A DNA stretch of 64,000 nucleotides from Candidatus Methylomirabilia bacterium (GCA_046758965.1 JBHIBG010000007.1:5276-69275), one strand, 5' to 3'; counted from the stretch's first letter, positions 20,382 to 61,005 are shown. The notes: generated by a model from the sequence alone, not told the origin. Program-made: numbers and translations.

Positions 20382-20568
20382 ATGTGCGGGCGGGGTCTGG
20401 CACCGGAAGTATAGGGTCGCAGAACGGAGCAGGCTCGGTGAAGGTGTCTGCGGGTTTGACGGCCTTGCCGCGCCGGAGCATGATATGGTGCGTGGCAGGA
20501 TTCAGTGTGGCAGTCGGATCATCTCGGGAGCTGGCGGGGCGCCCGCGCTGAACGGTTTGAGAAGCTGG

Positions 20569-20937
20569 ATGATCGCACAGTGGGCGTGGGAACTGATCGA
20601 GCCGTATCTCGAGAGGAACCTGGCCGGGCGCGGAGTGGAGCGCCCCTCGAAAAAGGAGATGCTGGCGGAGTTCGGGCGCGTGTGGTCGGACTTCTCCGCG
20701 ACCATCATGGTGCAGGAGCCCTGGATGGGCACGATCCGATTCAAGCGCCTGGTCAAACTGCCATCTTCCGAGATGGAACGATTTCTCGAGGACCCGATGA
20801 GCTTCATCGGAGAGCGCTTCGGCGGCGGCAAATTCAAGGTAAACTTCCACTACGGCATGCACTTTGTCAGCACCAAGAACTTCAAGCCGGAGGGGCCCCC
20901 GATCTGGAAGGACCTCCCCGAGCTGGCGGAGGATTGA
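20569..20937 (+). CDS. Hypothetical protein.
   Basis: The tail of ORF 20161..20937 beyond the end of the upstream gene (20381). The frame is coherent and the codon usage is GC-rich. There is no family match. Alternative start GTG/ATG near 20485. Confidence 0.35.
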   Translation: MIAQWAWELIEPYLERNLAGRGVERPSKKEMLAEFGRVWSDFSATIMVQEPWMGTIRFKRLVKLPSSEMERFLEDPMSFIGERFGGGKFKVNFHYGMHFVSTKNFKPEGPPIWKDLPELAED

Positions 20938-32500: not shown

Positions 32501-33153
32501 CCGACCTCCACGGTCTCCCCCCCGTCGGCCAGCGCTCCGACCAGCTTCATCGCCACCCAGCAGCCGCTGAAGCGAGACATTGCGATGGCGTGAAGACCCA
32601 TCTCCAGGAACTCCGCCACGGACGCCGGGTACACGACGGGGATGCCGGCGCTCAGGAAGGCGTAATCGTCCTGGTAGGGGACGGTGGAGCTCTTGGCCTC
32701 GTGATCCTCGCCGCTCAGGATGACGACGGCGCCGTGGCGGCTGGTCCCGGCGAAGTTCCCGTGCTTCAAGGCGTCGCCACTCCGGTCAACGCCCGGCCCC
32801 TTGCCGTACCAGATGGCGACCACCCCCTCGTAACGGGAGTGGGGGTAGGTATCCAGCATCTGCGTGCCGCTGATGGCGGTGGCGGCCAGCTCCTCGTTCG
32901 CGCCGGGCACGTGCAGGACGTCATGTCGCTCCAGGAGCGCGCGCGCCTGTTGCAGCGCCAGGTCGTACCCTCCGAGCGGCGACCCCGGATAGCCACTGAT
33001 GAAGGTGCCGATGGAGAGCCCCGCACGGCGGTCCCGGCGGCTCTGCTCGAGAGGCAGGCGCACCAGCGCCTGCAGGCCGCTGAGGTAGACGATTCCTTCT
33101 TCTTGAAGGTACCGATCGTCCAATGTGACATCCTTCGTCGTGCGCCCGGTCAT
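29596..33153 (-). CDS. Fused alpha-beta indolepyruvate:ferredoxin oxidoreductase family protein (2-oxoacid:ferredoxin oxidoreductase, about 1185 aa).
   Basis: N-terminal TPP/pyrimidine domains, a 4Fe-4S ferredoxin insert CEGCGHCGALTNC...CNQDYSCLAGDCPSF, and a C-terminal IorB-like domain. The length matches single-chain IOR fusions. Confidence 0.85.
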   Translation of the reverse strand: MTGRTTKDVTLDDRYLQEEGIVYLSGLQALVRLPLEQSRRDRRAGLSIGTFISGYPGSPLGGYDLALQQARALLERHDVLHVPGANEELAATAISGTQMLDTYPHSRYEGVVAIWYGKGPGVDRSGDALKHGNFAGTSRHGAVVILSGEDHEAKSSTVPYQDDYAFLSAGIPVVYPASVAEFLEMGLHAIAMSRFSGCWVAMKLVGALADGGETVEVGPERPSVVIPELAFWGRPFKKATDFTFFPGMNIETERQLYYERHQAVLAYARANKLDRVVVRSARDRLGIITAGKSYADTRQALLELRLDDHTLRGVGIRLLQVGLIYPVDADLVREFAGGLDEIIVVEEKRGFLEAQVKEALCSLPHAPRVVGKSDESGAPLFPIQGGMDSDLVAERLGPRLLKLAGDHPGILGRLAELRGIRERRYDTLPMRTPNYCSGCPHNISTRLLDGQVAWGSPGCHSFASIIEQPERHIVSMTQLGGEGLPWIGLAPFTDRRHLVQNVGDGSLFHSSYLNIRFCVAAGVNMTFKILYNGFVANTGAQDMVGAKPIPELTRLLETEGVRRIAVVTKNPKAYRNASLASNARAYPVEQQDRVLKELEREAGVTVFIYDGMCANERRRRRKRGKLPVPNRFVVINEAVCEGCGHCGALTNCMSLPTVDTEFGLKTQVHASSCNQDYSCLAGDCPSFVSVETKEGTGYRRPAPPILDGEAIPEPARKVRLDQPYRIYIPGVGGTGVITINALLCYAALIDGKRVLSYDQTGAAQKWGPVLSSLVIAAPDHPLAANKVGAGTADLYLAFDLMAAANPTNLDRCDPNRTAAVTNTTLFPSGEMVRNISFSPPVEAMKGAIARFTSAGRSVFVEGRRIAEALFGDYMTTNLFILGVAYQSGLLPLTARSIEAAIRLNRVQVDQSLQAFRYGRLHVADPAGVRALAEPPRRGFEDERAGVLARLSGNDAHAYVSLLDRGAHLDEESRRMLAVRIAELIDYQDARYPEAYVEFVLRVAAREQAVVEGRFEVTHAVIRHLYKLMAYKDEYEVARLHLKPRFHAETRSLFVEPRRLVYNFHPPLLRAIGLRRKLAFGPWFTPVLRMLRRMRGLRGTPWDIFGYAGVRREERRLIPWYTALVEDALDRLDPGTHPLVAEIARLPDGIRGYEEIKLDNVAAVKGRAEKLTERLRESRVSAAGRL

Positions 33154-34992: not shown

Positions 34993-36297
34993 TCACATCA
35001 CGCCGCGCGCCCTGAGCCCTGCCAGCGTCTCGCGCCCGTACCCGAGATACTTGGCGTAGATGTGGGCGTTGTCCTGTCCGGGCTTGCGGCACGCCCACTT
35101 GAGTCGCGGAGGGGAGGCGCTCAGCTTCTGGAAGGGGAGCTGGATCAGGAGATCGCCGTAGGTCGGATCAGAGAAGATCGCCAGGGTGCCCCGCTCCCGG
35201 TAGTGTTCGTTCAGAACCACATCCCGGGGGTCGACGACCCGTCCGGCCACCATGACCCCGCCCTCGATGAGCCGATTCTGATCCTCGAATCGTGCGACGA
35301 TCTCCTCAAAGGTCAGCGTGGTGGTCCAGGCCTCGATCTCCTGGTGCAGGCGGCTCTGCACCTCGAGAGGTCGCCGCGAGGAGATTGACGGGTACTGCTC
35401 GATGAGGCCGGGCCGGTTCATGAGCCGGCACAGGGCCTGCCAGGCCGGCTCCATCACGGCGGCGAGCAGGAGGTAGCCGTCCTTGCACCGGACGTACGTG
35501 TACGGAAAGATGGCGGTGTCATAGTTTCCCACCCGGGAACGGACGACTCCATCCAGCTCCCACCAGGCCACGCTGAGATCGGCGCTCCGCATCAAGGCTT
35601 CGGCGGGGGAGACGTCCACGAACTGACCGATCCCGGTGAGGGCTCGGAAATGCACGGCCACGAGGATTCCGAACGCCCCCCAAAGCCCGCCCAGCGTCCA
35701 GCCGTGCCAGCTCCCTTGCCGCGTGGGCACGGCGGAGGGGTCCGCATCCACGCCGGGTGGGGAACCGGTGATGAAGGTGACCCCGGAGAGGGCCTGGTCC
35801 GCGATATCGGCATTGGGCTGGCCGCAGCCAGCGCGCGGGCCGAACTGGCCGTACGTATAGAGCGCGCAGTAGATCAGCCGGGGATTGTGCTCCGAAAGCT
35901 GCCGGTAGCCGAGCCCCCAGGAATCCATCTGGCCGGGCAAGAAGGTCTCGATGAGCACGTCGGCCCGCCGGGAGAGCGTCTCCAGGATCCGGCGCCCCTC
36001 CTCGCTCTCCAGGCTCAGGGTGATATGGAGCTTGTTTCTCCCCTCCACGAGGTAGCCGAGGCCGGTCCCGTCGTGGAGCAAGCCAAACGGTGTGAAGCGA
36101 CGGGCTGGGTCTCCTTCGGGAGGCTCGATCCGAACCACCTCGGCGCCCAGCTCCGCAAGGAATGACGACGCCACCAGGCCGGCCATGCTGGCTCGGGAGC
36201 AGTCCAGCACCAGGAGGTCGGCGAGGGCCTCGGCCTTCTTGAATGCTGTCTTGGGATCGTCGAGGGTCCGGATCCAGTCGGGCCAGGAGTCGTTCAT
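34993..36297 (-). CDS. Family III CoA-transferase (CaiB/BaiF).
   Basis: LVLDCSRASMAGLVASSFLAELGAEVVRIEPPEGDPARRF. The start was chosen at the Met (MNDSW...) just below the upstream gene's stop; ORF 34993..36390 extends further. Confidence 0.85.
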   Translation of the reverse strand: MNDSWPDWIRTLDDPKTAFKKAEALADLLVLDCSRASMAGLVASSFLAELGAEVVRIEPPEGDPARRFTPFGLLHDGTGLGYLVEGRNKLHITLSLESEEGRRILETLSRRADVLIETFLPGQMDSWGLGYRQLSEHNPRLIYCALYTYGQFGPRAGCGQPNADIADQALSGVTFITGSPPGVDADPSAVPTRQGSWHGWTLGGLWGAFGILVAVHFRALTGIGQFVDVSPAEALMRSADLSVAWWELDGVVRSRVGNYDTAIFPYTYVRCKDGYLLLAAVMEPAWQALCRLMNRPGLIEQYPSISSRRPLEVQSRLHQEIEAWTTTLTFEEIVARFEDQNRLIEGGVMVAGRVVDPRDVVLNEHYRERGTLAIFSDPTYGDLLIQLPFQKLSASPPRLKWACRKPGQDNAHIYAKYLGYGRETLAGLRARGVM

Positions 36298-36301
36298 GAG
36301 A

Positions 36302-37630
36302 TCAAAGGGCTTTGCCCTCGCCCTGCCAATCGTCGGGAGGCTTCTGGCCTGGACGGTCCGCCCACTGGCCGATGATCCCGGCCGCCTCAAGGTCGTTCAA
36401 CTCTGCTCGTGAGAGGCCCAGAAGGCCCCGGAGGATGAAGTCGTTGTCCGCGCCGATGGGCTTGATGGCCCACTTGATCCGTCCCGGGGTCGCCGAAAGC
36501 TTCGCTGCCGGGCCGCCCAGCGGGAATTTTCCGTATATCGGGTCGTCGTGGCGCCAGAGGGCGCGCCTGGCAGCCAGGTGAGGTTCCTTGGCGTGGTCCC
36601 TGCCGCTCGCCACCGGAGCGGCAGCGAAGCCGTGGCGGTCGCCGAGTGCGACCAGCTCTGCAATGGTTCGCTGCTTCGCCCAAGCCCGGATGAGAGCCAG
36701 GAGCGTCTCGCTGTTGTCGTGCCGGGCGCGGGCCAGCTGCGTTTGGTACGGTGAATGTTCGGCCAGGTCAGGCTGCCCCATCGCGGCGGCCAGGCCCCTG
36801 AAGGCCTCATCCGTGGGGGCCGAGATGGCGATAAACCCGTCGGTCGCCTCGACGATGTCTGAGGGGACGATGGCAGGATCAGCGTTCCCGTAGCGGCCCC
36901 GGTGCTGGTTCGTGAGACCGTGGAAGACCCAGGTCCAGTCCAGGAACCGGATCAGCGCCTCCACCTGAGCGATCTCGATGAACTGGCCCTCACCGGTGCG
37001 CTGCCGGTGGTGCAAGGCGGCCAGAATCGTGGCGGCGGCGGCAATGGCTCCCAGGTAGTCCCCGACGTACCCTCCGCTCTTGAGGGGCGGCCGGGTGGAG
37101 AACCCCGTGATGGCGGCCATTCCGCTCTCCCCCTGGGCGATGGCATCGTAGGAAGGGCGTCCTGCCCCGTAACTGCCCCACTGCCCGAAGCCGTTGTGGG
37201 CCGAGTAGATCAGGCGGGGATTCACCTCGCGGAGTCGTCGGTAGCCGATCCCCCACCGCTCCAACGTGCCTGCCCTGAAGTTCTCCACCACCACGTCCGC
37301 CTTCGCCGCTAGCTGTCTGAACAAGGCAGCACCCTCGGGCTTCCGCACATCGAGCCCGACGAAGTACTTGTTCTTCGGCTCGCTCAGGCCGATCAGCGAC
37401 ATGTTCTGGTGGTAGCTGGGACCGAGTGCCCGGATGGTGTCGCCAACTCCGGGGATCTCGACTTTGAGGACCTCCGCTCCGTACTCGGCCAGATACGTGG
37501 TGGTAGTCGGGCCGAGGAAGATGGTACCGAGGTCAATGACCCGGAGGCCACGCAGCGCCTCCGGCTTCGTGAAGATTTTCGTGGGATCGAAGAGGGCAGA
37601 GGTCCACTGGAAATACCCGGGGACAGTCAT
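36302..37630 (-). CDS. Family III CoA-transferase (CaiB/BaiF).
   Basis: LRVIDLGTIFLGPTTTTYLAEYGAEVLKVEIPGVGD. The catalytic Asp context GDYLGA is present. Confidence 0.85.
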   Translation of the reverse strand: MTVPGYFQWTSALFDPTKIFTKPEALRGLRVIDLGTIFLGPTTTTYLAEYGAEVLKVEIPGVGDTIRALGPSYHQNMSLIGLSEPKNKYFVGLDVRKPEGAALFRQLAAKADVVVENFRAGTLERWGIGYRRLREVNPRLIYSAHNGFGQWGSYGAGRPSYDAIAQGESGMAAITGFSTRPPLKSGGYVGDYLGAIAAAATILAALHHRQRTGEGQFIEIAQVEALIRFLDWTWVFHGLTNQHRGRYGNADPAIVPSDIVEATDGFIAISAPTDEAFRGLAAAMGQPDLAEHSPYQTQLARARHDNSETLLALIRAWAKQRTIAELVALGDRHGFAAAPVASGRDHAKEPHLAARRALWRHDDPIYGKFPLGGPAAKLSATPGRIKWAIKPIGADNDFILRGLLGLSRAELNDLEAAGIIGQWADRPGQKPPDDWQGEGKAL

Positions 37631-37761
37631 GGCTCCACGACTCTAGCAGACCTGGCGCTCCCCAATCAATGGGCGTTCAGCCCAATTCCTTCAGTCCGAC
37701 TCGCCACGCTGGCGTTCGCTTCAGTATCCGATCCAGGTATACTCACCCCGGGGTAGCAGCG

Positions 37762-39264
37762 ATGGAGTTCCTGGGCTGGATGTACGACATCGCGCGGGAG
37801 CAGGCCCCGCGTGAGAGGCTCCTGCTCGAGACGTTGCGCCGGTCGGGGGAGGCGGGGTACACCGCTGTCGGCCTCTACGTCGAGCACCGCTTCGCCTATC
37901 CCTCCGCGCCATGGGCGGCAGCGCCCGGCTGCCTCACGCCCGAGGCGATGCGCCGTCTGTCCGGTGCCCTGGGTGTCTCGGGCCCGCGGGTCATCCCGTT
38001 TCTCAATACGCTCGGACACATGGAGGGGTTCGTCCGCTCCGAGGGCGGGCAGTGGCTGGGCGAGGCGTCAGCCCGGGGGTCACTGCAGATTTGTCCAAGC
38101 CGTCCAGAATGCGTCGAGTTCGCCTGGAGTCTGGTTTCCGACGCGATGGGGGCGTTCGGCGACGGGTGGGTGCACATCGGGGGCGACGAGACAAGACAAC
38201 TGGGCGCGTGCCCCGCCTGCGCGGAGCGGGTGCGGTCGATCGGAAAGGCCGGATTGTACGCGGAGTACTTCGGCCGCCTCTGCCGTCGTGTGCTGGAGCG
38301 CGGGCGGCGGCCCTGCCTGTGGGGGGATCTGCTCGCGCGGCATCCCGAAGCCTTGAGCGGCATCCCGACCGAGACGGTGATCTTCGACTGGCGCTACGAC
38401 GCGGGCCCGGCGGAGACGACGCGCATCTTCCGACAACGCGGCTTCGAGGTGGTCTGCTGCCCGGCCCTGCGCAGCTACGATTCCGGATGGTGCTTTCTCG
38501 ATGAGACGCGGCAGCTCATCGACGCGCACGCAGCGGATGCGCGGCGTCTGGGGGCGCTGGGCGTCCTCGTGTGCGCCTGGGAGTTCTTCGGCTTCTCCTC
38601 CCTCCCGTCGGTGCTCCCGCTGATTTTCGCAGCGGGCCGACGCCTGGCGAGGGGTGAAGGCTGGACGGCAGCGACGGCATCGGAAGGCGGGCCCGGGTAC
38701 GCCGAGGCCGCGGAGATCGTGGGAAGCCGCCTTCCCGCTGCCTCGCGGTTTCTTCGTCCGGGAACGTGGCGCTCGCTCCGCGGACAGCTTGCGCTTCAGG
38801 GCGACCCGTTCGCTCTCTGGCGTGCGTGGAGGGAGGAGGCCTGCAGCGGGGCCGGCGAGGCGATTCTGCGCGACTGTGACCGAGCGGAGGCGCTCCTGCC
38901 GGAGGCCAGCCCGTTGCGATTTCCGGTCGAGCTGCACCGCGTCGCCGTGGAATGGGTGCGCCTCGTCGAAGGAGCGTACCGCCGCTATGCCGCCCGGGAT
39001 GTAGCCGGGTGCGCCACCGCACTCGCTCGGGGGCGCGCGCTGCTCGGGCGCTTGCAACCCGGCCTGGAGCGCATCGCGGCGGAGGGCGGGTCAGTGGGAG
39101 ATCTCCACCGGCTCGACCGCCTCCTGGAAGCGATCGATCGCGTTGCGAAGCGCCTGGGCGAGCTGCCGGGCGATGCCCCCTGGCGGCCCGCGTTCGAAGC
39201 GCTGACTCACGAGGCATTCACTCCAGGTGACCAGGCCGGGTGGCGAACGGACGGAGCGGCGTAG
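37762..39264 (+). CDS. Glycoside hydrolase family 20-like (beta-N-acetylhexosaminidase catalytic domain) protein with a Cys-rich C-terminal extension.
   Basis: GH20 catalytic blocks IPFLNTLGHMEGF and HIGGDE (the H-x-G-G-D-E acid/base pair). It carries the cysteine quartet CPSRPEC...CPAC and lacks a signal peptide. Confidence 0.6.
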   Translation: MEFLGWMYDIAREQAPRERLLLETLRRSGEAGYTAVGLYVEHRFAYPSAPWAAAPGCLTPEAMRRLSGALGVSGPRVIPFLNTLGHMEGFVRSEGGQWLGEASARGSLQICPSRPECVEFAWSLVSDAMGAFGDGWVHIGGDETRQLGACPACAERVRSIGKAGLYAEYFGRLCRRVLERGRRPCLWGDLLARHPEALSGIPTETVIFDWRYDAGPAETTRIFRQRGFEVVCCPALRSYDSGWCFLDETRQLIDAHAADARRLGALGVLVCAWEFFGFSSLPSVLPLIFAAGRRLARGEGWTAATASEGGPGYAEAAEIVGSRLPAASRFLRPGTWRSLRGQLALQGDPFALWRAWREEACSGAGEAILRDCDRAEALLPEASPLRFPVELHRVAVEWVRLVEGAYRRYAARDVAGCATALARGRALLGRLQPGLERIAAEGGSVGDLHRLDRLLEAIDRVAKRLGELPGDAPWRPAFEALTHEAFTPGDQAGWRTDGAA

Positions 39265-39386
39265 GTACTACGGTTCATCGCGCGTGCGCTTGCCACCTCC
39301 CGACGCGCATGGCAGCAGACCCTGTTGAAGAGGGGTGGTTCTGGTGCTATGGTCGGATGAAATCCTGCGAGCAGAGAGGTGACCTC

Positions 39387-39929
39387 ATGAGGATCGTGCT
39401 GCCGCACATAACCTACCGGAGCGAAGGGATACGTCTGGCGCCGCGCCCGGCCACCCTCGCCGGCAAGGTTATCGGGTTCCTGGATGGATGGGGGCGCCGT
39501 GAGGAAGATGGCAGCTTCCGGATGTACCCCCTCATGGAGGAGTTGAAGGAGCTTCTGGAGCAGCGGCACGGCGCGGCTGGCGCGCTTTGGCTCAAGAAGC
39601 CGAGCATCTCCAAGCCCGCCCCCAAGGAGCAGATCGCCGAGCTGGTGGCCGAAGCTGACGTGGTCATCAACGGCGAAGCGGCATGAGGGTCCTGCACTTA
39701 CGCGTCCGTGCAAGACGCGGTGGACTTGGAGCTTCAAGGTAAGCCGACTATCACCATCTCCCATGACACCTTCGAGCGAGCGGCCCGCAACCACGCGACG
39801 GCTATGGGGCTTCCGGATCTCCTGCTCCTGGTGGAGCCAGCGCCCAAAGGCGGCAACCTCAGCAAGGAGGCTCGGGCCCTGGCTGAGCAGAACCTTGAGC
39901 GCGTGCTCGCCGCACTAACCGCACGGTAG
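39387..39929 (+). CDS. Putative UGSC-motif selenoprotein. It is a single gene read through the in-frame TGA at 39684-39686 as selenocysteine, joining ORFs 39240..39686 and 39708..39929.
   Basis: The same frame continues across the TGA with no other stop: ...VVINGEAA-TGA-GSCTYASVQDAVDLELQGKPTITISHD.... This gives a U-G-S-C redox motif. A hairpin lies 15 nt downstream of the TGA. Both halves have coding-like composition. The downstream half has only a GTG, with no RBS of its own. Confidence 0.6.
39701..39719 (+). promoter_or_regulatory. Candidate bacterial SECIS-like hairpin downstream of the in-frame UGA.
   Basis: cgcgtc (39701-39706) pairs with gacgcg (39714-39719) around a 7-nt loop cgugcaa that contains a GU. 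It starts 15 nt after the UGA, within the spacing range for bacterial SECIS elements. Confidence 0.3.
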
Positions 39930-39975
39930 GATCCTGACCTTGCCCTCTCCCTCGGGGGGGAGGAAGGCCCTGGGG

Positions 39976-41061
39976 GTGCCGAATGTGAGGTCACCTGTTC
40001 AGGAACTCTCAGACTTCTGGGAGTGGTACGAGCTGGCATGTCAGAAGGGCTGGACAGATGGCCTTCTGGTCGCTCCTCCAACGGAAGAGCGGGTCCACGC
40101 CACCATCGACTATTTGGGTCGCGATCCCTTGGAGGTCCTTGGTGTGGTTCCACCCAAGCACGGGCTCGCGACGATCGAACAGATTGCCGTGAACTGCACC
40201 ATGGCAGGCTGCGAACCGGAGCATGTCCCGGTGGTGATCGCGGCGCTTGAGGCGATGCTGGAGCCTGAGTTCAACCTCCACGGGGTGCAATCCACGACGA
40301 ACCCCTGCGCCCCCCTGACCATCGTCAACGGGCCGATCGTCAGAGCGCTCGGCTTCAACGCCAAGGAGGGGGCCTTCGGTGGAAGCTCCCGAGCCAATGC
40401 CTGCGTGGGCCGCGCAATCCGCCTGATCCTCTGGAACATCGGCGGCGGCATCCCAGGTGAGACCGACATGTCGACTCAGGGGCAGCCGGCCAAGTATCTC
40501 TTCTGCGTGGCAGAGAACGAGGAGGACAGCCCCTGGGAGCCGCTTCATGTGGAGCGCGGATGCCGGCCTGAGGAGAGCGCGGTTACCGTCTTCGCCTGTC
40601 AGTCGCCGGATCCCCTTTTCGTCCCTGGCGCGGCGGAGCGCATCCTCCGGGTCATCGCCGCGACGGTTCCAACGCCGGGAGTCAACATGTTCCACACCGC
40701 TGGCCAGTTTCTCCTCTCCTTCGGCGTCAAGCCCGCCCAGGAGCTGGCCCGGGCCGGCTACTCGAAGGCAGAAGTCAAGCGCTGGGTCTGGGAGCACGCC
40801 CGGTATCATCTCGGACGGCTCCGTCGGAGCGGTGTCCTGGTAGAGGGCGAAGGCCACACGTACTATTGGGGTCACGGGGAGGGGGACGTTCCCGACCTCC
40901 ACACCTTGCCCGATGAGAGCAAGCTTCCCATGGTCCGCTCGCCGGAGATGATTCATCTGGCAGTGATCGGCGGGTCCTCCCAGTGGTGGGTCGGGATGTC
41001 AGCCGGCTGGGGAAACTACGGCGGCTACGCCGTGACGAAGCCGATCCGACTTCCCGGCTGA
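39976..41061 (+). CDS. Hypothetical Cys-rich protein, co-transcribed partner of the selenoprotein gene.
   Basis: Conserved-looking Cys positions (CTMAGCEPEH, NPCAPLTIVNG, ANACVGRAI, FACQSPD). RBS GGGAGGAAGG precedes GTG 39976; the ORF track opens at TTG 39940. No family was recognised. Confidence 0.55.
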   Translation: MPNVRSPVQELSDFWEWYELACQKGWTDGLLVAPPTEERVHATIDYLGRDPLEVLGVVPPKHGLATIEQIAVNCTMAGCEPEHVPVVIAALEAMLEPEFNLHGVQSTTNPCAPLTIVNGPIVRALGFNAKEGAFGGSSRANACVGRAIRLILWNIGGGIPGETDMSTQGQPAKYLFCVAENEEDSPWEPLHVERGCRPEESAVTVFACQSPDPLFVPGAAERILRVIAATVPTPGVNMFHTAGQFLLSFGVKPAQELARAGYSKAEVKRWVWEHARYHLGRLRRSGVLVEGEGHTYYWGHGEGDVPDLHTLPDESKLPMVRSPEMIHLAVIGGSSQWWVGMSAGWGNYGGYAVTKPIRLPG

Positions 41062-41131
41062 TCAGGCGCATCCTCGCGCGGTTTGGCGTTATCCCGGGGA
41101 GCGAGGGCCTTACAGTCAGTTGGAGGGAAAG

Positions 41132-43831
41132 ATGCCGGACGACTATTTCACGTGGAGCGCGGAGACCTTCCGGATAGATCGCATCTTCGCCAAGCCCGAA
41201 GCGCTCAGGGGGATCCGGGTCCTGGAGCTGGCGACCTTGATCTTGGGACCGGCCACCCCGGCGTACCTGGCCGAGTTCGGCGCCGAGGTGATCAAAGTCG
41301 AGCTGCCGGGGGTGGGAGACACGATGCGCTCGCTCACTCCGCGCGCCCGCTTCTGGAAGAACGCGGCCCTGGGCTGGCTCAGCGAGGCCCGGAACAAGTA
41401 CCACGTGGCCATCGACGTGAGGAAGCCGGAGGGGCAAGCCCTCTTCCGGTCCCTGGCGGCCCAGTCCGACGTCCTCGTCGAGAACCTCCGCGCCGGGACC
41501 ATGGAGGAAAAGTGGGGGATCGGCTACCGCCAGCTCTCCGCCATCAACCCGCGCCTCATCTACGTCGCCAACTCCGGCTTTGGGCAGTGGGGTCCCTTCT
41601 CCCGGGGCCGCGCCTCCTACGATGCCATTGCCCAGTCGGTGAGCGGGATGGCAGCCATCACCGGGTTCGCTGAGCGCGATCCTCTGAAGAGCGGAATCTG
41701 GATCGGCGACTACTTCGGTGCGCTCATGTCGGCGGTGGCGGTCCTGGCGGCGCTCCACTATCGGGATCGAACGGGGAAAGGGCAGTTCATCGACTTTGCC
41801 CAATCAGAGAATCTGATTCGCGCGCTCGACTGGACCTGGGTCTATCACGGCCTCACCGGTCAGAGCCGCGGCCGCCACGGCAACTGCGACGTGGCGGTGT
41901 CACCCTCGAGCTTTTTCGCGTGCCGGGACGGGATGGTGGCGATCGCTGCCCCTCACGATGAGGCCTTCCGGGGGCTCTGCGAAGCCATGGGCCGACCCGA
42001 GCTGGCCGAGGACCCCCGGTTCTCCACCCAGCTCGAGCGCCTGAAGGAAGAGAACATCGCCGCCCTCCTCAAGCTCATCGCCGAGTGGGCGAGCGACAAA
42101 GCCAGGGGGGAGGTGGATGAGCTGGGAAGCCGCTACGCTTTTGCGGCCGCTCCGGTGGCGAACGCGGAAGATCACTACCGCGACGTTCACCTCCGGAAGC
42201 GGGGCTCAGTCTGGAAGCTCGACGACCCCATCTACGGCTCCGTGGTGGAGTACGGCCCGGTCCCCAAGCTCTCGGAAACTCCGGGACGGCTTAAGTGGGC
42301 CGGCAAGCTCGTGGGGCAAGACAACCGGCTCATCTTGACGCGGGTCCTCGGCCTGAGCCCGGAGGAGATCCAGCCCCTCGAGGCCCGGGGCATTATCGGC
42401 AAGTGGAGCGACATGATCGGCCGGAAGCCTCCGGAGGGGTGGACAGACTCTGAGGAGGATTCCGCGAGTGCTTCACCCCTATCCCCGAGGCGTGAGGCCC
42501 CCTGGCCAATGCCAACAACGGCCTCGGTGAATGACCCGCCGCCCTGGACTGTCTGGGCGAAGGCGGCCACTGACCCGGCTCGGGCCTTCGACAAGCCCGA
42601 AGCTTTGGAGGGCATTCGAGTCCTGGATTGCTCGTACGGAAGCCTGGCCGGCTGTTTCTGCTCGTCGGTCCTGGCCGAGTTCGGGGCTGAGGTGATCCGA
42701 ATCGAGCCTCCGGAGGGCGACCTGGCGCGGCGGTTCACCCCGTTTGGCCTGCTTCATCAGGGGACCGGGCTCGGCTATCTGGTCGAGGGACGAAACAAGC
42801 ACCATGTGACCCTCAATCTCAGGCATCCCGGAGGCCAGGCGCTCCTCCGGACGCTCGCACAGAACGCCGATATCCTCATCGAGACCTTTCTCCCCGGCAC
42901 GATGGATGCCTGGGGGATCGGCTACCGCCAGCTCCGCGAGGTGAACCCCCGTCTCATTTATTGCGCGCTCTCAACCTACGGCCAGTTCGGCCCCAGGGCG
43001 GCATGCGGGAAGCCGCCAGCCGAGGTCGTTGACCAGGCCCTGTCCGGGGTCTCCTACTTCACGGGTGAGTCGGACCTGGACGTGGGGCCGGCCGCCTACG
43101 CGGTGCCGACCAAGCAGGGGAACTGGCATGGCTGGTACGCAGGAGGCGGCTACGGAGCGTTCGCGACCCTGCTGGCCCTCCATCACCGCGTCCTCACCCT
43201 AGAGGGGCAGCTCATCGATGTCTCCCCCGCGGAGGCCGCGATGCGCTTTGCCGACTACAACTGCCTCTGGTACCACGCCGAGGGGAAAAACCGGGAGCGC
43301 GTGGGGAACCTCGACATGGCGGTCTTTCCCTACACCTACTTCAGGTGCAAGGATGGCTTCGCGTTCATCGCCGGTTTCTCCGACGTCAACTGGGCGGCCC
43401 TCACCACGATCATGGGCCGGCCTGACCTCCGCGAGCGTTACCCGACGATCTTCCAGCGCCTCGAGCACGAGAAGGAGAAGGAGATTTACCGCGAGCTGGA
43501 GTCCTGGGCCACCAACTACAGCTCGGAGGAGATTCTGGAGATGGTCCAGAACTACAGAGGCAAAGGGGTGGTGGCCACCGGCCGAATCAACGAGCCGAAG
43601 GAGACCCTTGCCGAGGAGAACTGGTGGGAGCGGGGGGTCTTTCAGCGGATCCAGGACCCGTACTACGGCGAGCTACTCGTCCAGAATCCACCGTGGAAGA
43701 TGACCGAGACCCCGCCGCGGGTCAAGTGGGTCTGCCGGCCGGTCGGCGCTGACAATGAAGAGATCTACGCCAAACGGTTCGGCTTGGATTCCGCTTCCCA
43801 GAAAGCCCTTCAGGCGGAGGGGGTGCTGTGA
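41132..43831 (+). CDS. Tandem-fused protein with two family III CoA-transferase (CaiB/BaiF) domains, about 900 aa.
   Basis: Domain 1 has IRVLELATLILGPATPAYLAEFGAEVIKVE. A Ser/Pro/Asp-rich linker (DSEEDSASASPLSPRREAPWP) follows. Domain 2 has IRVLDCSYGSLAGCFCSSVLAEFGAEVIRIEPPEGD. RBS GGAGGG precedes ATG 41132. Confidence 0.85.
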   Translation: MPDDYFTWSAETFRIDRIFAKPEALRGIRVLELATLILGPATPAYLAEFGAEVIKVELPGVGDTMRSLTPRARFWKNAALGWLSEARNKYHVAIDVRKPEGQALFRSLAAQSDVLVENLRAGTMEEKWGIGYRQLSAINPRLIYVANSGFGQWGPFSRGRASYDAIAQSVSGMAAITGFAERDPLKSGIWIGDYFGALMSAVAVLAALHYRDRTGKGQFIDFAQSENLIRALDWTWVYHGLTGQSRGRHGNCDVAVSPSSFFACRDGMVAIAAPHDEAFRGLCEAMGRPELAEDPRFSTQLERLKEENIAALLKLIAEWASDKARGEVDELGSRYAFAAAPVANAEDHYRDVHLRKRGSVWKLDDPIYGSVVEYGPVPKLSETPGRLKWAGKLVGQDNRLILTRVLGLSPEEIQPLEARGIIGKWSDMIGRKPPEGWTDSEEDSASASPLSPRREAPWPMPTTASVNDPPPWTVWAKAATDPARAFDKPEALEGIRVLDCSYGSLAGCFCSSVLAEFGAEVIRIEPPEGDLARRFTPFGLLHQGTGLGYLVEGRNKHHVTLNLRHPGGQALLRTLAQNADILIETFLPGTMDAWGIGYRQLREVNPRLIYCALSTYGQFGPRAACGKPPAEVVDQALSGVSYFTGESDLDVGPAAYAVPTKQGNWHGWYAGGGYGAFATLLALHHRVLTLEGQLIDVSPAEAAMRFADYNCLWYHAEGKNRERVGNLDMAVFPYTYFRCKDGFAFIAGFSDVNWAALTTIMGRPDLRERYPTIFQRLEHEKEKEIYRELESWATNYSSEEILEMVQNYRGKGVVATGRINEPKETLAEENWWERGVFQRIQDPYYGELLVQNPPWKMTETPPRVKWVCRPVGADNEEIYAKRFGLDSASQKALQAEGVL

Positions 43832-45177
43832 AATCCGATCCGACGCAGGCTGACTACCTCACCTGGACGAGGGAAGCGTTCCGGCGCGATCGGATCTTCG
43901 CCAAGCCCGAAGCTCTCAGCGGGCTCCGCATTCTGGAGCTGGCCACCCTGATCCTCGGTCCCGTCACGCCTTCCTTCCTGGCCGAGTTCGGAGCTGAAGT
44001 GATCAAGGTTGAGCTGCCGGGCATCGGCGACCCGCTCCGCTCCATCACTCCCCGGGCGCGCTTCTGGAAGAACGCGGCGCTGGCCTGGCTCAACGAGGCT
44101 CGGAACAAGTACCACGTGGCCTTTGATGTCCGAGCCCCGGAGGGGCAGGCCCTGTTCAAGGCCCTGGCCGCCAAGTCCGACGTCGTCGTGGAGAATTTCA
44201 AGGCCGGGACGATGGAGGCCAAGTGGGGGATCGGCTACCGGCAGCTCCGGGAGCTGAATCCCCGCCTCATCTACGTGGCCAACACCGGGTTCGGGCAGTG
44301 GGGCTCGTTCTCCCAGGGCCGGGCCTCCTACGATGCGATCGCCCAGTCGGTGAGCAGCATGGCGACCATCACCGGCTTTCCGGAGCGGGACCCGGTCAAA
44401 TCCGGGGCCTGGATTGGCGACTACTTCGGGGCCCTCATGTCAGCCGTGGCCGTGCTGGTCGCGCTCCATTGGCGGGACCGGACCGGCGAGGGGCAGTTCA
44501 TCGACCTCGCGCAGTCCGAAAGCCTGATCCGCGCGCTCGACTGGACCTGGGTTCATCACGCTCTGACCGGAGAGAGCCGGAGCCGCTATGGGAACCGGGA
44601 TGTGGCGATCGCGCCCTCGGACATCGTGCGATGCCGCGATGGAATGGCTGCCGTTGCGGCGCCCTCCGATGACGCCTTCAGGGGTCTCTGCCAGGCCATG
44701 GGCCGCCCCGAGCTCGCCGAGGATCCGCGCTTCTCCACCCAGCTCGAGCGGTTGAAGGAAGAGCACGCGAAGGCTCTCGTCGCCCTCATCGCCGAGTGGG
44801 CGAGGGACAGGACGGTGGGGGAGGTAGATGCCCTCGGAGGCCGCTTCGGCTTTGCCTCGGCTCCGGTGCAAACCTCCCGCGATCACTACCATGACCCTCA
44901 CCTCCGCGAGCGAGGGGCGGTCTGGCAGCTCGACGACCCCATCTACGGCGAGGTGGTGGAGTACGGCCCGGTTCCGAAGCTCTCCGACACCCCCGGGAGG
45001 CTCAAGTGGGCAGGGAAGCCCGTCGGCCTGGACAACGACTATGTCCTGACGGCGATCCTCGGCCTCTCCCGGGAAGAGATCGAGAAGCTCGAGGCGAAAG
45101 GCGTCATCGGGAGGTGGAACGACGCGATCGGCCGGAAGCCTCCCGAGGGATGGGCAGGAGAGGGGAGGATTTTTTGA
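43828..45177 (+). CDS. Family III CoA-transferase, paralogue of domain 1 of the fused gene.
   Basis: It is collinear with domain 1 of the fused gene at protein and DNA level (FAKPEALSGLRILELATLILGPVTPSFLAEFGAEVIKVELPG vs FAKPEALRGIRVLELATLILGPATPAYLAEFGAEVIKVELPG). The GTG start overlaps the upstream TGA. Confidence 0.85.
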   Translation: MKSDPTQADYLTWTREAFRRDRIFAKPEALSGLRILELATLILGPVTPSFLAEFGAEVIKVELPGIGDPLRSITPRARFWKNAALAWLNEARNKYHVAFDVRAPEGQALFKALAAKSDVVVENFKAGTMEAKWGIGYRQLRELNPRLIYVANTGFGQWGSFSQGRASYDAIAQSVSSMATITGFPERDPVKSGAWIGDYFGALMSAVAVLVALHWRDRTGEGQFIDLAQSESLIRALDWTWVHHALTGESRSRYGNRDVAIAPSDIVRCRDGMAAVAAPSDDAFRGLCQAMGRPELAEDPRFSTQLERLKEEHAKALVALIAEWARDRTVGEVDALGGRFGFASAPVQTSRDHYHDPHLRERGAVWQLDDPIYGEVVEYGPVPKLSDTPGRLKWAGKPVGLDNDYVLTAILGLSREEIEKLEAKGVIGRWNDAIGRKPPEGWAGEGRIF

Positions 45178-46505
45178 AGCCGGGCGGCCGAGTGGGTGGG
45201 GGGCCGGATCGTCCGGAACAAGCGTGGGCCGAGTGGGCACAGGCGGCAACGGATCCCACCAACGCCAAGGAGAAGCCCGAAGCCCTCGATGATCTTCTGG
45301 TGCTGGACTGCTCTTACGGGAGCCTGGCCGGCAGCTTCTGCTCCTCCCTTCTGGCGGAGTTTGGAGCCGAGGTGATCCGGTTCGAGCCCCCCGAAGGCGA
45401 CCTCGCTCGGCACTTCACCCCCTGGGGGCTCCTCCAAGAGGGGACCGGACTCGGGTACCTCCCCGAGGGGCGAAACAAATTTCATGTCACGCTGAACCTC
45501 AGGCACGCCGAGGGACAGGAGCTGTTTCGGGCCTTGGCCCGTCGCGCGGACGTGCTGATCGAGACCTTCCTTCCGGGGATGATGGAGGGCTGGGGGATCG
45601 GCTACCGGCAGCTCCGGGAGCTGAATCCCCGCCTGCTGTACTGCGCTGTCTACACGTACGGCCAGTTCGGCTCCAAGGCCGCCTCGGGCAAGCCCCCGGC
45701 CGATGTCGTGGATCAGGCGCTCTCCGGGATCACCTCCTTCACCGGTGAGCCGGAGCCAGCCGAGGGGCCGGCTCCGTACGCGGTCCCGACCAGGCAGGGG
45801 AGCTGGTTCGGCTGGTACGCTGGCGGGGCCTACGCCGCTTTCGGGACCCTCGTGGCGCTCCGCTATCGTCGTCTCACGGGCCAGGGACAGTTCCTGGACG
45901 TTTCTCCGGCAGAGGCGGCGATGCGCTTTGCGGACTTCAACTGCCTCTGGTACCACGCCGAGGGGCAGAGCCGGGAGCGCCTGGGGAACCTGGACATTGC
46001 CGTCTACCCCTACACCTACTTCCGCTGCAAGCGCGGGTTTGTCTTCATCGCCGGCTTTCTGGACCCCAACTGGGCTGCCTTGACTGAGATCATGGGCCGA
46101 CCAGACCTCCGGGATCGCTACCCCACGATCCGGCGACGCCTGGAACATGCCAGGGAGATCCATCCCGAGATCGAGGCCTGGACCGCGAGGCACACCTTCG
46201 AGGAGATCCTCGACCAGGTGCAGCGCTATCAGGGCGGAGGAGTCGTGGCCACGGGACCGGTCAACGAGCCTCGGGAGACGGTGGCCGAGGCTCACTGGTG
46301 GGAGCGGGGGGTGTTCCAGCGCTTCCGGGATCCTTACTACGGCGAGATGCTGATCCAGAACCCGCCCTGGAAGATGACCGCCACCCCACCACGGGTAAAG
46401 TGGCTCTGCCGGCCTGTGGGGGCGGACACCGCGGCGATCTACGGAAAGTATCTCGGCCTCGGTCCCTCCCGGCTTGCGACCCTCAGGGACTCTGGAGTGG
46501 TCTGA
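45174..46505 (+). CDS. Family III CoA-transferase, paralogue of domain 2 of the fused gene.
   Basis: LVLDCSYGSLAGSFCSSLLAEFGAEVIRFEPPEGD...FLDVSPAEAAMRFADFNCLWYHAEG parallels domain 2. The probable TTG start at 45174 overlaps the upstream TGA (TTGA) and follows GGGAGG. Confidence 0.8.
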   Translation: MKPGGRVGGGPDRPEQAWAEWAQAATDPTNAKEKPEALDDLLVLDCSYGSLAGSFCSSLLAEFGAEVIRFEPPEGDLARHFTPWGLLQEGTGLGYLPEGRNKFHVTLNLRHAEGQELFRALARRADVLIETFLPGMMEGWGIGYRQLRELNPRLLYCAVYTYGQFGSKAASGKPPADVVDQALSGITSFTGEPEPAEGPAPYAVPTRQGSWFGWYAGGAYAAFGTLVALRYRRLTGQGQFLDVSPAEAAMRFADFNCLWYHAEGQSRERLGNLDIAVYPYTYFRCKRGFVFIAGFLDPNWAALTEIMGRPDLRDRYPTIRRRLEHAREIHPEIEAWTARHTFEEILDQVQRYQGGGVVATGPVNEPRETVAEAHWWERGVFQRFRDPYYGEMLIQNPPWKMTATPPRVKWLCRPVGADTAAIYGKYLGLGPSRLATLRDSGVV

Positions 46506-46647
46506 GCGGGGGGGCCAGGTCGTTCTTGACAAACCCCCATCACCTCGCTACCCTCTCACCACGCTCCGGCCGAGGCAGAGGCTCCCCGCGGCACGGCGCG
46601 GGGTTACGCACTCTCCGAGGACCGGACTCGACAGAGGAGGAACCACC

Positions 46648-47661
46648 ATGAACAAGAAGTTGTTCGGGGTTCTCATCGTTTCATTGGCGCTGCTGGTTTC
46701 AGGGGTGCTGCCAGCTTTTGCCGAAACCATGACCTGGAAAGTTGTGGGGCTCAACCGCGCCACCCCCCAATTCAAGCCATGGGAATGGTTCGCAGCGGAG
46801 CTGGAGAAGCGAACCAAGGGGCAGATAAAGGTGAATCTGGTGAGCCTGCCCGAGCTAGGGCTGACCGGCTTTGAGCTGGTACGGGTGATCAAAGCGGGCT
46901 TGGTCGACGTCGCTGACATCCTGCCCACCTATGTCGCCGGGGACGTGCCGATCATCGAGGGGGTCGACCTGGTGGGGCTCTTCCCCGATTTTGACACGTC
47001 CGTGAAGGCCCACGATGCCTTCATGCCAGTGTTGAGCAAGCATCTGGCGAAGATCGCCGGTGGGGTGGTCATCGGGGTCTACTACTGGCCTCACCAGGTG
47101 ATGTGGAGCCGTAAGCCGGTCCGGAGCCTGAACGACTTGAAGGGAATGAAGGTCCGGGTCTACGGCACCGCGCAGACAGAGTTCCTGAAGGCGCTCGGCG
47201 CCGTGCCGGTCTCCATCGCCTTTGCCGAGGTGTACACGGCGCTGGAGCGGGGCACCGTGGATGCGGCCATTACGGGAACCTATTCGGGATATGCCTTGAA
47301 GTGGTACGAGGTCAGCAAGTACCAGATTGAGATGAACCTGGGGCCTGTGATCGGAACCCTGACCGTGAGCAAGCGGACCTGGGACAAGCTCACCCCGGGG
47401 CTCAAGGCCACGCTGAACCAGCTTGGAAAAGAGTTCACCGAGAGGGGGACGGAGGTCGGCCGGCGAACCTCTCAGCTCGGTATCGACGAGTCTGCAAAGA
47501 AGGGAATTGAGTATGTCAATCTGGGACCGAAGTTTCTCAAGGGCACTCGGAAGGCTGTCATCAACGCCGTGATCCCGGGGTGGGTGAGGCGGGCCGGGCC
47601 GGAGGCCAAGCCCGTGTTCAACCAGTACATCGCGCCATATGCAGGATACAAGATTCCCTGA
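46648..47661 (+). CDS. dctP: TRAP transporter substrate-binding protein (DctP family).
   Basis: Signal peptide MNKKLFGVLIVSLALLVSGVLPAFA. DctP-like body with the conserved Arg/Tyr context (KVRVYGTAQTEF). RBS GAGGAGG lies 7 nt upstream of ATG 46648. Confidence 0.85.
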   Translation: MNKKLFGVLIVSLALLVSGVLPAFAETMTWKVVGLNRATPQFKPWEWFAAELEKRTKGQIKVNLVSLPELGLTGFELVRVIKAGLVDVADILPTYVAGDVPIIEGVDLVGLFPDFDTSVKAHDAFMPVLSKHLAKIAGGVVIGVYYWPHQVMWSRKPVRSLNDLKGMKVRVYGTAQTEFLKALGAVPVSIAFAEVYTALERGTVDAAITGTYSGYALKWYEVSKYQIEMNLGPVIGTLTVSKRTWDKLTPGLKATLNQLGKEFTERGTEVGRRTSQLGIDESAKKGIEYVNLGPKFLKGTRKAVINAVIPGWVRRAGPEAKPVFNQYIAPYAGYKIP

Positions 47662-47667
47662 AGGCCG

Positions 47668-48294
47668 GTGAACCCCACGCCCGGGCGTGAGCCTGACGAG
47701 CGGTCTCTCACTGCCCGTCTTCTTCAAACGGTCAGCCAGGTCATCCGGGTGACGGATGGCCTGGCGACCGGCATGGCCTATCTCAGCGGCGCAGTCTTCC
47801 TGCTGATCTCGGCTTACATCACCATCGACGTCGTCGGGCGCAAGTTCTTTGGCATCACCACAGGCGTCTCGGATGAAATCGGGGGCTACGCCCTGGCCTT
47901 CGGCGGCGTGTGGGCGTTGGCATACACCCTCAGAACCGGGGGCCACGTCCGCATCGACGTCCTCCTCCCGTATCTGCCGCGCAGGACGAGATGGGTGCTC
48001 AACTATGCGGCCATGATCGTGATGGGGTTCTTCTCGGCTGTGCTTGCTGCCTACACCTGGCAACTCGCCCTGGACTCCTTCGCCATGAAAGCCAAGGCGA
48101 TGAGCTACATCCAGACACCCATCTGGCTGCCCCAGACCTTGGTGGCAGTGGGGCTGAGCGCGTTGACCGTGCAGGCCGCCATCATGCTCGGAGCGGGACT
48201 GGTGGAATCAGTCCTCTTGCGACAGTTAGCTCCCCTGAAAACCCTCCCAGCTCCCGGGACGAGCGAGGAGCCGGAAGCCCCGGAACCTGGTTAG
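47668..48294 (+). CDS. dctQ: TRAP transporter small permease (DctQ family).
   Basis: Four predicted TM helices and a length of about 200 aa. It is positioned between DctP and DctM. Confidence 0.7.
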   Translation: MNPTPGREPDERSLTARLLQTVSQVIRVTDGLATGMAYLSGAVFLLISAYITIDVVGRKFFGITTGVSDEIGGYALAFGGVWALAYTLRTGGHVRIDVLLPYLPRRTRWVLNYAAMIVMGFFSAVLAAYTWQLALDSFAMKAKAMSYIQTPIWLPQTLVAVGLSALTVQAAIMLGAGLVESVLLRQLAPLKTLPAPGTSEEPEAPEPG

Positions 48295-48366
48295 TGCCGT
48301 TCCAACTTCGAATCGCCTGCCGCCGCTTGCTACCCGGTAACGTGTGAACATCAGGAGCAATTTGCT

Positions 48367-49683
48367 TTGACAGCTCTTCTCGTCGCCTCCGGCTTGATGC
48401 TGGTCACGTTCATGCTCGGCCTCTACGTGGCCGCCGCCCTTGGCGTGCTGAGCCTGGGGCTCCTCTCGGTCTTCAGTGACGTCTCCATGTGGGGGATGTT
48501 CGGGCTCATCACCTGGAATACCAACATCAACTTCGTCCTGGTCGCGATCCCGCTGTTCGTCCTGATGGGGGAACTCCTCTTGCGGAGCGGCTTGACCGAG
48601 CGGCTCTACACGGTCATCTCCCAATGGCTCAACCCGCTGCCGGGGGGGCTGATGCACAGCAACATCGCCGCGTGCGCGATCTTCGCCGCGGTCTCCGGCT
48701 CGAGCATCGCGACCTCAGCGACCATCGGCTCGGTGGCGCTCCCCGCCTTTCGCGAACGCGGCTACGACGAGCGGCTGGTCATGGGCTCCCTGGCTGCCGG
48801 GGGTACCCTGGGGATCCTGATTCCTCCCAGCATCAACATGATCGTCTATGGCGTCCTGGTGGAGGAGTCGGTCGGCAGGCTGTATATCGCCGGGATTTTC
48901 CCCGGGATCATGCTCACGCTGCTCTTCATGTCCGTCATCTTTCTCGGCACCAAAATCGTGCGAGGCGCTGCGCCTCGCGAAGCTGCAACGCCCTGGCGGG
49001 TCAGGCTCGTCGGGCTGATTGCCCTCGGGCCCACCTTCATCTTGATCTTCCTGGTGCTGGGAACGATCTACCTCGGCGTGGCCACCCCGACCGAGGCCGC
49101 GGCCTTCGGCGTGGTCGGGGCGCTTGTGCTGGCCGCGCTCGCCGGACGTGTCAATTTCAGGATGCTGAGAGACGCCGCCCTGTCGGGTTCCCGGACGACG
49201 GCCATGATCATGCTCATCCTGACCGCCGCCTTCATCCTCAACTTCACCCTGTCGATTCTGGGCGTCCCTCACGCCCTGTCTCAGGGTGTCGTCGCCATGG
49301 GGCTGGGCCAGACCGCTACCCTGCTCATCCTGATCGGCTTCTACCTGCTGCTGGGGACATTCATGGATGGCTTCGCCATGATGGTGACCACCATCCCGGT
49401 GATCCTCCCCATCTTAAAAACGCAGAACATCGATCTGGTGTGGTTCGGCATCATCATCGTGATTCTCACAGAGGCGGCTCTGATTTCCCCGCCCGAGGGA
49501 CTGAACCTCTACGTCATCCACGGCCTCCGCAAGAAAGGAGCCAGGGAAGAGCTCAACCCGACCATCATGGACGTCTACATCGGGGTCCTCCCCTTCTTTT
49601 TTGCCATGGTCCTGGCTATCGGGATCATCGTGCTCTTCCCGCAAATCGCCCTCTGGCTGCCGTCCACGATGTTCGCCATGTGA
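48367..49683 (+). CDS. dctM: TRAP transporter large permease (DctM family).
   Basis: A 438-aa polytopic protein with typical DctM blocks (FVLMGELLLRSGLTERLY, GSSIATSATIGSVALP). Confidence 0.85.
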   Translation: MTALLVASGLMLVTFMLGLYVAAALGVLSLGLLSVFSDVSMWGMFGLITWNTNINFVLVAIPLFVLMGELLLRSGLTERLYTVISQWLNPLPGGLMHSNIAACAIFAAVSGSSIATSATIGSVALPAFRERGYDERLVMGSLAAGGTLGILIPPSINMIVYGVLVEESVGRLYIAGIFPGIMLTLLFMSVIFLGTKIVRGAAPREAATPWRVRLVGLIALGPTFILIFLVLGTIYLGVATPTEAAAFGVVGALVLAALAGRVNFRMLRDAALSGSRTTAMIMLILTAAFILNFTLSILGVPHALSQGVVAMGLGQTATLLILIGFYLLLGTFMDGFAMMVTTIPVILPILKTQNIDLVWFGIIIVILTEAALISPPEGLNLYVIHGLRKKGAREELNPTIMDVYIGVLPFFFAMVLAIGIIVLFPQIALWLPSTMFAM

Positions 49684-60820: not shown

Positions 60821-61005
60821 CCGGTCATCACCTCCGTTCGTCCCACGCGCTCTCGCTGCCCGAAGCCCATCGTGAACAGACCGTCGGCCGCAAGCCAACG
60901 GGGGCTCCGAGGCGGCGGCCCCCTTTCAGGCCCCTCAACGGGTGTTGAGACTGCTTTCCAAACGCCTATAATGGTGGCAGAATGGGAAGATAAGGGCAGA
61001 TCGCC

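Follow-up and report, generated by a model that had tools for sequence, protein, structure and literature searches.

A UGSC-family gene interrupted by an in-frame TGA

The stretch of DNA analysed here, referred to below as the window, comprises 64,000 nucleotides of one strand from a Candidatus Methylomirabilia bacterium (GCA_046758965.1 JBHIBG010000007.1:5276-69275), with positions counted from its first letter. At 39387–41061 it carries two adjacent genes on the + strand, the first a member of the UGSC family of (seleno)proteins whose frame is interrupted by a TGA codon very probably read as selenocysteine (Sec), the second encoding a larger partner protein of an uncharacterised family. The features of this gene pair are as follows.

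39373..39379, + strand: Shine-Dalgarno (SD)-like AGAGAGG, 7 nt 5' of ATG 39387, read directly from the sequence
39387..39929, + strand: probable UGSC-family selenoprotein gene, 180 codons plus a TAG stop in a single frame, Sec at codon 100
39684..39686, + strand: UGA very probably read as Sec, the first residue of U-G-S-C, from the aligned codon across loci
39693-39695, + strand: TGC codon of the putative resolving Cys, from the translation
39701..39719, + strand: hairpin resembling a bacterial selenocysteine insertion sequence (SECIS), with a 6-bp stem formed by 39701-39706 (CGCGUC) and 39714-39719 (GACGCG) and a 7-nt loop at 39707-39713 (CGUGCAA)
39976..41061, + strand: partner gene, 361 residues, uncharacterised family, 46 nt downstream of the UGSC gene, with a GGAGGA-rich ribosome-binding site

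A single frame runs from ATG 39387 to the TAG at 39927–39929 with the TGA at 39684–39686 as its sole interruption, and translation across that codon confirmed the U-G-S-C motif proposed in a preliminary description of the sequence. The read-through product has 180 residues, with the motif at codons 100–103 (...VVINGEAA-U-G-S-C-TYASVQDAV...), and the predicted peptide across the UGA is ...NGEAA-U-GSCTYASVQDAVDLELQGK. The frame had been delimited as 39240..39686 plus 39708..39929; the shared frame and the TGA were correct, but the true start is ATG 39387, as set by the N-termini of homologues (MRIV...), and GTG 39240 is ruled out by the homologues, whose sequences open with MR(I/V)V. The second half had been said to lack a plausible ribosome-binding site of its own, and sequence inspection agreed, no SD sequence being found 5' of either candidate start (GTG 39708 and GTG 39720). 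TGA is the commonest ordinary stop codon of the window, and the genetic code is therefore not reassigned. Other same-frame pairs of open reading frames (ORFs) separated by TGA in the window (6487/6488, 20937/20938 and 52582/52583) were considered and set aside as ordinary gene boundaries.

Searched with Cys in place of U, the read-through product matched the Pfam family PF24696 ("UGSC family") with 138 bits against a cut-off of 25, its residues 3–178 aligning with profile positions 2–171 of 172, and this full-length match upholds the assignment to the UGSC (seleno)protein family made earlier from the motif. The NCBIfam model NF041046 ("UGSC family (seleno)protein", 147 positions) was matched with 90.2 bits (E = 1.3e-25) over residues 49–178 only. 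PF07355 and PF09338 remained unmatched even at E = 0.1, and PF24696 was the sole Pfam family found. Pfam models the UGSC domain as one unit spanning both halves of the split gene, while the public annotation of the source metagenome-assembled genome (MAG) divides it into ACE5JN_03780 (99 residues) and ACE5JN_03785 (69 residues), both labelled "hypothetical protein", which is the outcome that had been anticipated from an ORF finder. The UGSC family was noted by Zhang & Gladyshev in 2007, who treated it as already known (PMC1976440), was counted among the major, most abundant families in the 2008 Global Ocean Sampling (GOS) study, with 255 Sec and 21 Cys sequences (PMC2398784), and is listed as still uncharacterised in a 2026 review (PMC13188914). 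The locus is a new, mis-annotated member of this known selenoprotein family; the family, its motif and the existence of a fusion have already been published.

Conservation of the TGA codon

A homologue search of 5.8 billion proteins returned 103 relatives of the UGSC product, all but a handful of which are fragments of ~99 residues ending ...NG(E/Q)(A/C)A, exactly before the TGA; one of them is the window's own fragment, 100% identical, from the Candidatus Methylomirabilia MAG. The C-terminal halves are called in the relatives as separate ORFs of 67–82 residues. Full-length relatives carry CGSC (P0008 and P0014) or SGGC (P0011) at the site, and Cys also occupies the U column in L060, P0219, P0222 and many more distant CGSC forms (GDCGSC in distant members), in line with the Cys homologues that the preliminary description had predicted. 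Among 1.84 billion cluster representatives, 336 clusters were found, many of them full-length CGSC forms. The window protein is like the rest of the family in its full-length Pfam match, its U-G-S-C motif and the CGSC of its Cys homologues, and also in having more Sec than Cys forms among its close relatives, in agreement with the GOS counts given above.

We also fetched 76 related loci from genomes and metagenomes, 72 of which cover the TGA site. The aligned codon is TGA in 70 of the 72, TGC (Cys) in one (L060) and TCC (Ser) in one (L020), and the hosts include Rokubacteria/Methylomirabilia, Dehalococcoidia/SAR202, Burkholderiales, Alphaproteobacteria and several Actinomycetota, representing at least five phyla. 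The frame is open 3' of the TGA in the related loci, where the 80 encoded residues are 54–92% identical to those of the window, and homologues from five phyla align over residues 1–180 across the TGA. The combination of a conserved TGA with an open, conserved downstream frame is a pattern that neither a pseudogene nor two independent genes can explain. The possibility that the TGA is a real stop, leaving a pseudogene or two small genes of 99 and ~69–73 residues, agrees with the two ORFs called by gene callers here and in relatives and with the lack of Sec machinery in the window, and a genuine stop followed by an independent second ORF had been named from the outset as an outcome that would speak against a selenoprotein. 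It is strongly disfavoured by the comparative data, and we regard it as extremely improbable, since the TGA is kept at the same codon in loci from five phyla with a conserved frame beyond it, single-chain Cys-containing homologues and fusions span the site, the candidate starts at 39708 and 39720 lack an SD sequence, and the Pfam domain covers both halves as one unit. On these alignments the in-frame TGA is very probably a real Sec codon, and we hold with high confidence that 39387–39929 is one gene for a 180-residue UGSC-family selenoprotein, in which the UGA is recoded, coupled to the partner gene as a two-part enzyme.

A conserved hairpin 3' of the UGA

The hairpin reported at 39701–39719, where bacterial SECIS elements sit, is present with the 6-bp stem and 7-nt loop first described, and its stem begins 14 nt after the UGA. 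Nearly all Sec loci retain it: across 46 distinct Sec-type sequences, its six pairs are intact in 97.5% of cells, none of 500 shuffles attained the pairing or covariation score observed, and sliding the 3' arm abolishes the pairing. Compensatory changes are seen at two pairs. Most loci have C:G as the closing pair and the Dehalococcoidia group has G:C; there, a Tyr-to-Ser replacement (TAC to TCG) goes together with a synonymous change from GCG to GCC that keeps the closing pair; in the low-GC locus L062, two pairs are changed to A:U. CGUG at the 5' side of the loop is invariant. The hairpin codons TAC, GCG, TCC, GTG and GAC show almost no synonymous variation (none at all for Ser TCC and Tyr TAC), and the three four-fold synonymous sites of the hairpin rank first, second and fourth most conserved of 54 in the UGSC gene, a ranking as low or lower being found in only 2 of 24,804 possible triples; mean third-position entropy at the other four-fold sites is 1.37 bits. 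The Cys form L060 encodes a similar peptide and has no hairpin. It is this comparative evidence, rather than folding energy, that lifts the hairpin above chance, and it suggests that 39701–39719 acts as a bacterial SECIS and is under selection as RNA.

In the type exemplified by Escherichia coli fdhF, the bacterial SECIS is a hairpin just 3' of the UGA that is bound by SelB and exposes G and U in its apical loop. The window hairpin is alike in lying within the coding sequence, in its GC-rich stem of 6–7 bp and invariant loop G-U (CGUG) and in the distance of its stem from the UGA (11 nt in the L026 paralogue described below), and differs in having neither an evident bulged U nor an Rfam SECIS match.

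Several observations weigh against the interpretation of the locus as a SECIS-directed selenoprotein gene. The folding energy of the hairpin is by itself unremarkable (−22.7 kcal/mol for a 62-nt fold, z = −1.38), and no Rfam SECIS or other RNA family was matched, whether in the whole window at the gathering threshold or in 39600–39800 at E up to 10, so that the comparison with SECIS models proposed earlier yielded a SECIS-like position, size and exposed G-U but no match to a model. Only two of the six pairs vary on both sides, this limited covariation being due to the strong conservation of the stem, and the changes probably represent few independent events. Pfam annotation of essentially all large genes found no selA, selB or selD in the window, and ARAGORN found no tRNA-Sec there and indeed no tRNA at all, and only tRNA-Ser and tRNA-Arg in the fetched loci. 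The capacity for Sec decoding is therefore drawn from phylum-level literature only, in which a Methylomirabilota MAG with 63 predicted selenoprotein genes (PMC13188914) and Sec-type hydrogenases in Methylomirabilota (PMC13582414) have been reported. The product also falls short of the curated cut-off of the NF041046 equivalog (90.2 against 125), in which it differs from the family as modelled there; judged by its profile matches, it is a PF24696 member of a longer, divergent subfamily to which the equivalog name would not apply. Finally, the structural statement made below rests on the model of a Cys homologue that is 47% identical to the window protein.

The absent Rfam match, modest z-score and few covarying pairs, together with the high conservation of the peptide, would also be expected if the hairpin were not a SECIS at all and arose as a by-product of the conserved peptide GSCTYASVxDA and GC-rich codons, with read-through achieved by other means. 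We consider this very unlikely, because its synonymous sites are far more constrained than the other four-fold sites of the gene (first, second and fourth of 54), the change from Tyr to Ser is accompanied by the change from GCG to GCC that keeps the pair, L062 and the L026 paralogue retain the hairpin with different stem sequences, and the Cys form L060 has a similar peptide without it.

For the Ala codon at 39678–39680, two positions before the UGA, 36 of the 41 sequences with Ala there use GCG, which makes it the third most conserved four-fold site of the UGSC gene. This bias may point to a sequence context needed immediately 5' of the Sec codon.

The partner protein and its coupling to the UGSC protein

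The 361-residue partner encoded at 39976–41061 has no Pfam or NCBIfam match, and its homologues, of which there are more than 7,690, are all unnamed and none has a Pfam domain. Its earlier description as an unclassified Cys-rich protein directly downstream holds for its position and lack of classification, but "Cys-rich" is an overstatement for a protein with 8 Cys in 361 residues, of which C79, C177 and C208 are nearly invariant. The AlphaFold2 model of the partner has a predicted local distance difference test score of 91.5 and shows no close solved fold. The only sequence match to a solved structure, thioredoxin reductase 4jnq (E = 4e-4, 22 bits), was treated as spurious because the alignment ends at the CATC site of the reductase, where the partner has no Cys.

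Where a locus holds enough sequence, the partner gene nearly always lies directly downstream of the UGSC gene, the exceptions being L018, in which it lies upstream, and L019, from which it is missing. The partner is fused to a CGSC-type UGSC domain in P0219, P0222, P0336 and P0387, and to the post-TGA half of the domain in P0207, P0211, P0212 and P0170; as the latter four carry only that half, they represent Sec-containing fusions truncated by the gene caller. These fusions, at least eight proteins in all, are spread over near as well as distant branches of the family. The coupling proposed in the preliminary description is thus borne out by adjacency nearly everywhere and by fusion in some bacteria, which is classic gene-fusion evidence that the UGSC protein and its partner would form a functional unit. 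A physical complex between the two is a plausible extension of the same evidence. UGSC proteins fused with an unnamed second domain ("Unknown_1") are also known from the GOS data (PMC2398784), and the partner very probably corresponds to this domain.

A paralogue of the partner is encoded ~2 kb upstream of the UGSC gene in L004, L005, L030 and L031 (e.g. L005:961-2205 and L004:796-1734). It is 38–44% identical, has an N-terminal extension of ~90 residues and no UGSC domain, and adjoins an arylmalonate decarboxylase/Asp-Glu racemase-like gene and an alpha/beta hydrolase gene. The existence of partner paralogues without the UGSC module suggests that the partner is probably the catalytic subunit and the UGSC protein an accessory redox module.

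A second, divergent UGSC gene is found on a Rokubacteria contig (L026:9765-10540), downstream of a normal UGSC–partner pair and TRAP (tripartite ATP-independent periplasmic) transporter genes. It encodes VISGMAC-U-GSCT, with its TGA at 10104 and a Pfam UGSC match of 35 bits, and is fused in frame to a partner-like domain, making it a Sec fusion. Its hairpin, which begins 11 nt after the UGA, has an entirely different stem (GCCCGC/GCGGGC) and the same CGUG loop start.

Predicted fold and comparison with known selenoproteins

For the fold of the UGSC protein, the Cys homologue P0008 was modelled in place of the window protein. The prediction is a Rossmann-like (alpha/beta/alpha) and not a thioredoxin-like fold, so that the thioredoxin fold of the thioredoxin-fold UxxC selenoproteins is lacking from this model; it differs in this from the fold supposed in the GOS study (PMC2398784). 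That study also supposed a redox role for UGSC (PMC2398784), and its proposals, along with a UxxC motif typical of thioredoxin-like proteins and the arrangement in L019, where the UGSC gene is followed by TRAP genes without a partner, would suit a real selenoprotein that acts as a stand-alone thioredoxin-like thiol/selenol oxidoreductase, its proximity to the partner and to CoA-transferase and TRAP genes being incidental. Given the Rossmann-like prediction, the adjacency of the partner in nearly all loci across phyla and its fusion in at least eight proteins from distant branches, we judge a stand-alone enzyme of this kind to be unlikely and favour the two-part enzyme.

PrdB of D-proline reductase and GrdB of glycine reductase are the selenoprotein B subunits of the Stickland reductases and belong to PF07355. 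The UGSC protein resembles them in its UxxC Sec motif, in that it would work as one subunit together with a larger, probably catalytic protein from the neighbouring gene and, by analogy, would act on small amino or organic acids (properties of PrdB and GrdB taken in part from Table 2 of PMC2398784). It differs from them in the lack of PF07355 and PF09338 matches, in having a partner without any Pfam match and in its hosts, Rokubacteria, SAR202 and soil Proteobacteria in place of fermenting Clostridia. The likeness is therefore presented as an analogy of organisation, and membership is not claimed.

Genomic neighbourhood

The gene pair is flanked by genes for family III coenzyme A (CoA)-transferases and a TRAP transporter.

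34993..37630, − strand: two divergently oriented family III CoA-transferase genes upstream (Pfam PF02515)
41120..46505, + strand: three family III CoA-transferase genes with four CaiB/BaiF-type domains (Pfam PF02515), namely 41120-43831 (double domain, 903 residues), 43828-45177 and 45006-46505
46474..49683, + strand: TRAP transporter genes DctP (46474-47661, PF03480), DctQ (47668-48294, PF04290) and DctM (48367-49683, PF06808)

These domain matches substantiate the CoA-transferase/TRAP catabolic setting suggested earlier, and a further CoA-transferase, an acyl-CoA dehydrogenase and an enoyl-CoA hydratase are encoded at 55.7–60 kb. The run from the UGSC gene through the partner gene to the first CoA-transferase gene holds no terminator-like site. 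A TRAP system also follows the UGSC–partner pair in about 10 other loci; elsewhere, the pair adjoins ATP-binding cassette (ABC) systems of the Opp or branched-chain type, a TctC receptor, IclR regulators, and genes for CoA-transferase III, enoyl-CoA hydratase and short-chain dehydrogenase/reductase (SDR) proteins, and in one case a thioredoxin-reductase-like flavoprotein. Sec and Cys forms alike repeatedly have transporters and genes for CoA-transferase III, enoyl-CoA hydratase, SDR and IclR proteins around them. The common theme of these neighbourhoods is the uptake and CoA-dependent breakdown of small organic acids.

The flavoprotein (L081:4616-5551, 311 residues, Pyr_redox_2) is encoded in the cluster of the Cys-form UGSC protein P0008, together with the partner, CoA-transferase III, enoyl-CoA hydratase, an SDR, an IclR regulator and a TctC receptor. 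Seen in this single case, the flavoprotein might serve as electron donor.

Proposed mechanism and significance

In the mechanism we propose from the sequence comparisons, the UGA at 39684 would not be read as a stop, and the hairpin at 39701–39719 would recruit SelB with Sec-tRNA(Sec) so that Sec is inserted. The protein would be a small Rossmann-like domain in which, according to the model, Sec100 lies where a beta-strand ends and a helix begins, with Cys103 three residues further on. U-G-S-C would then have standard redox-pair geometry and could cycle between the selenolate/thiol and selenenylsulfide states. The UGSC protein would be the redox-active subunit of a two-part enzyme, the larger part being the 361-residue partner, which is separate here and fused in other bacteria. 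Judging from the neighbourhood only, the pair is apparently co-transcribed with the family III CoA-transferases and the TRAP transporter, and on the same grounds would most likely perform a redox step on an imported organic acid or its CoA thioester.

More broadly, and tentatively, the UGSC protein and its partner might constitute a widespread, uncharacterised selenoenzyme that carries out a Sec-dependent step when organic acids taken up through TRAP, ABC or TctC systems are degraded in Rokubacteria, SAR202 and soil Proteobacteria. The larger part of that enzyme belongs to a family of more than 7,000 sequence clusters with no Pfam model and no solved structural relative. If this proposal were true, it would add a type of Sec-dependent reaction outside the formate dehydrogenase, hydrogenase and Stickland-reductase classes. 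Among environmental selenoprotein families, UGSC ranks with the most abundant, and no function has yet been assigned to it (PMC2398784, PMC13188914); what is added here is its near-obligate coupling to one large uncharacterised family, a predicted Rossmann-like fold and a consistent catabolic neighbourhood, which together make the function of the family experimentally approachable. For annotation, the locus clearly illustrates how a selenoprotein gene comes to be divided into two "hypothetical proteins", and the same split affects essentially every public relative found (~100 N-terminal and ~40 C-terminal fragments).

Other features of the window

Seven CaiB/BaiF domains are encoded within 22 kb of the window (34993-37630, 41120-46505 and 55677-56876), an unusual local expansion. 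Just upstream of the UGSC gene, a 531-residue ORF (37669-39264, + strand) has a weak match to glycoside hydrolase family 20 (41.6 bits), fails the third-position GC filter passed by nearly all other genes of the window and is overlapped by long antisense ORFs; it is a doubtful gene, or one of doubtful origin. On the − strand, 29596-33153 encodes a 1,185-residue protein with POR and DUF6537 domains, of the fused indolepyruvate/2-oxoacid:ferredoxin oxidoreductase type. Behind it on that strand come an AMP-binding acyl-CoA ligase gene, a luciferase-like monooxygenase gene and two zinc alcohol dehydrogenase genes, and the region looks like another catabolic cluster. Three ORFs of 258–404 residues (7614-8480, 20161-20937 and 60805-62019) had no Pfam match; the last of them, on the − strand, overlaps the RelA/SpoT gene at 61006-63162 (+ strand) and is probably not a gene.

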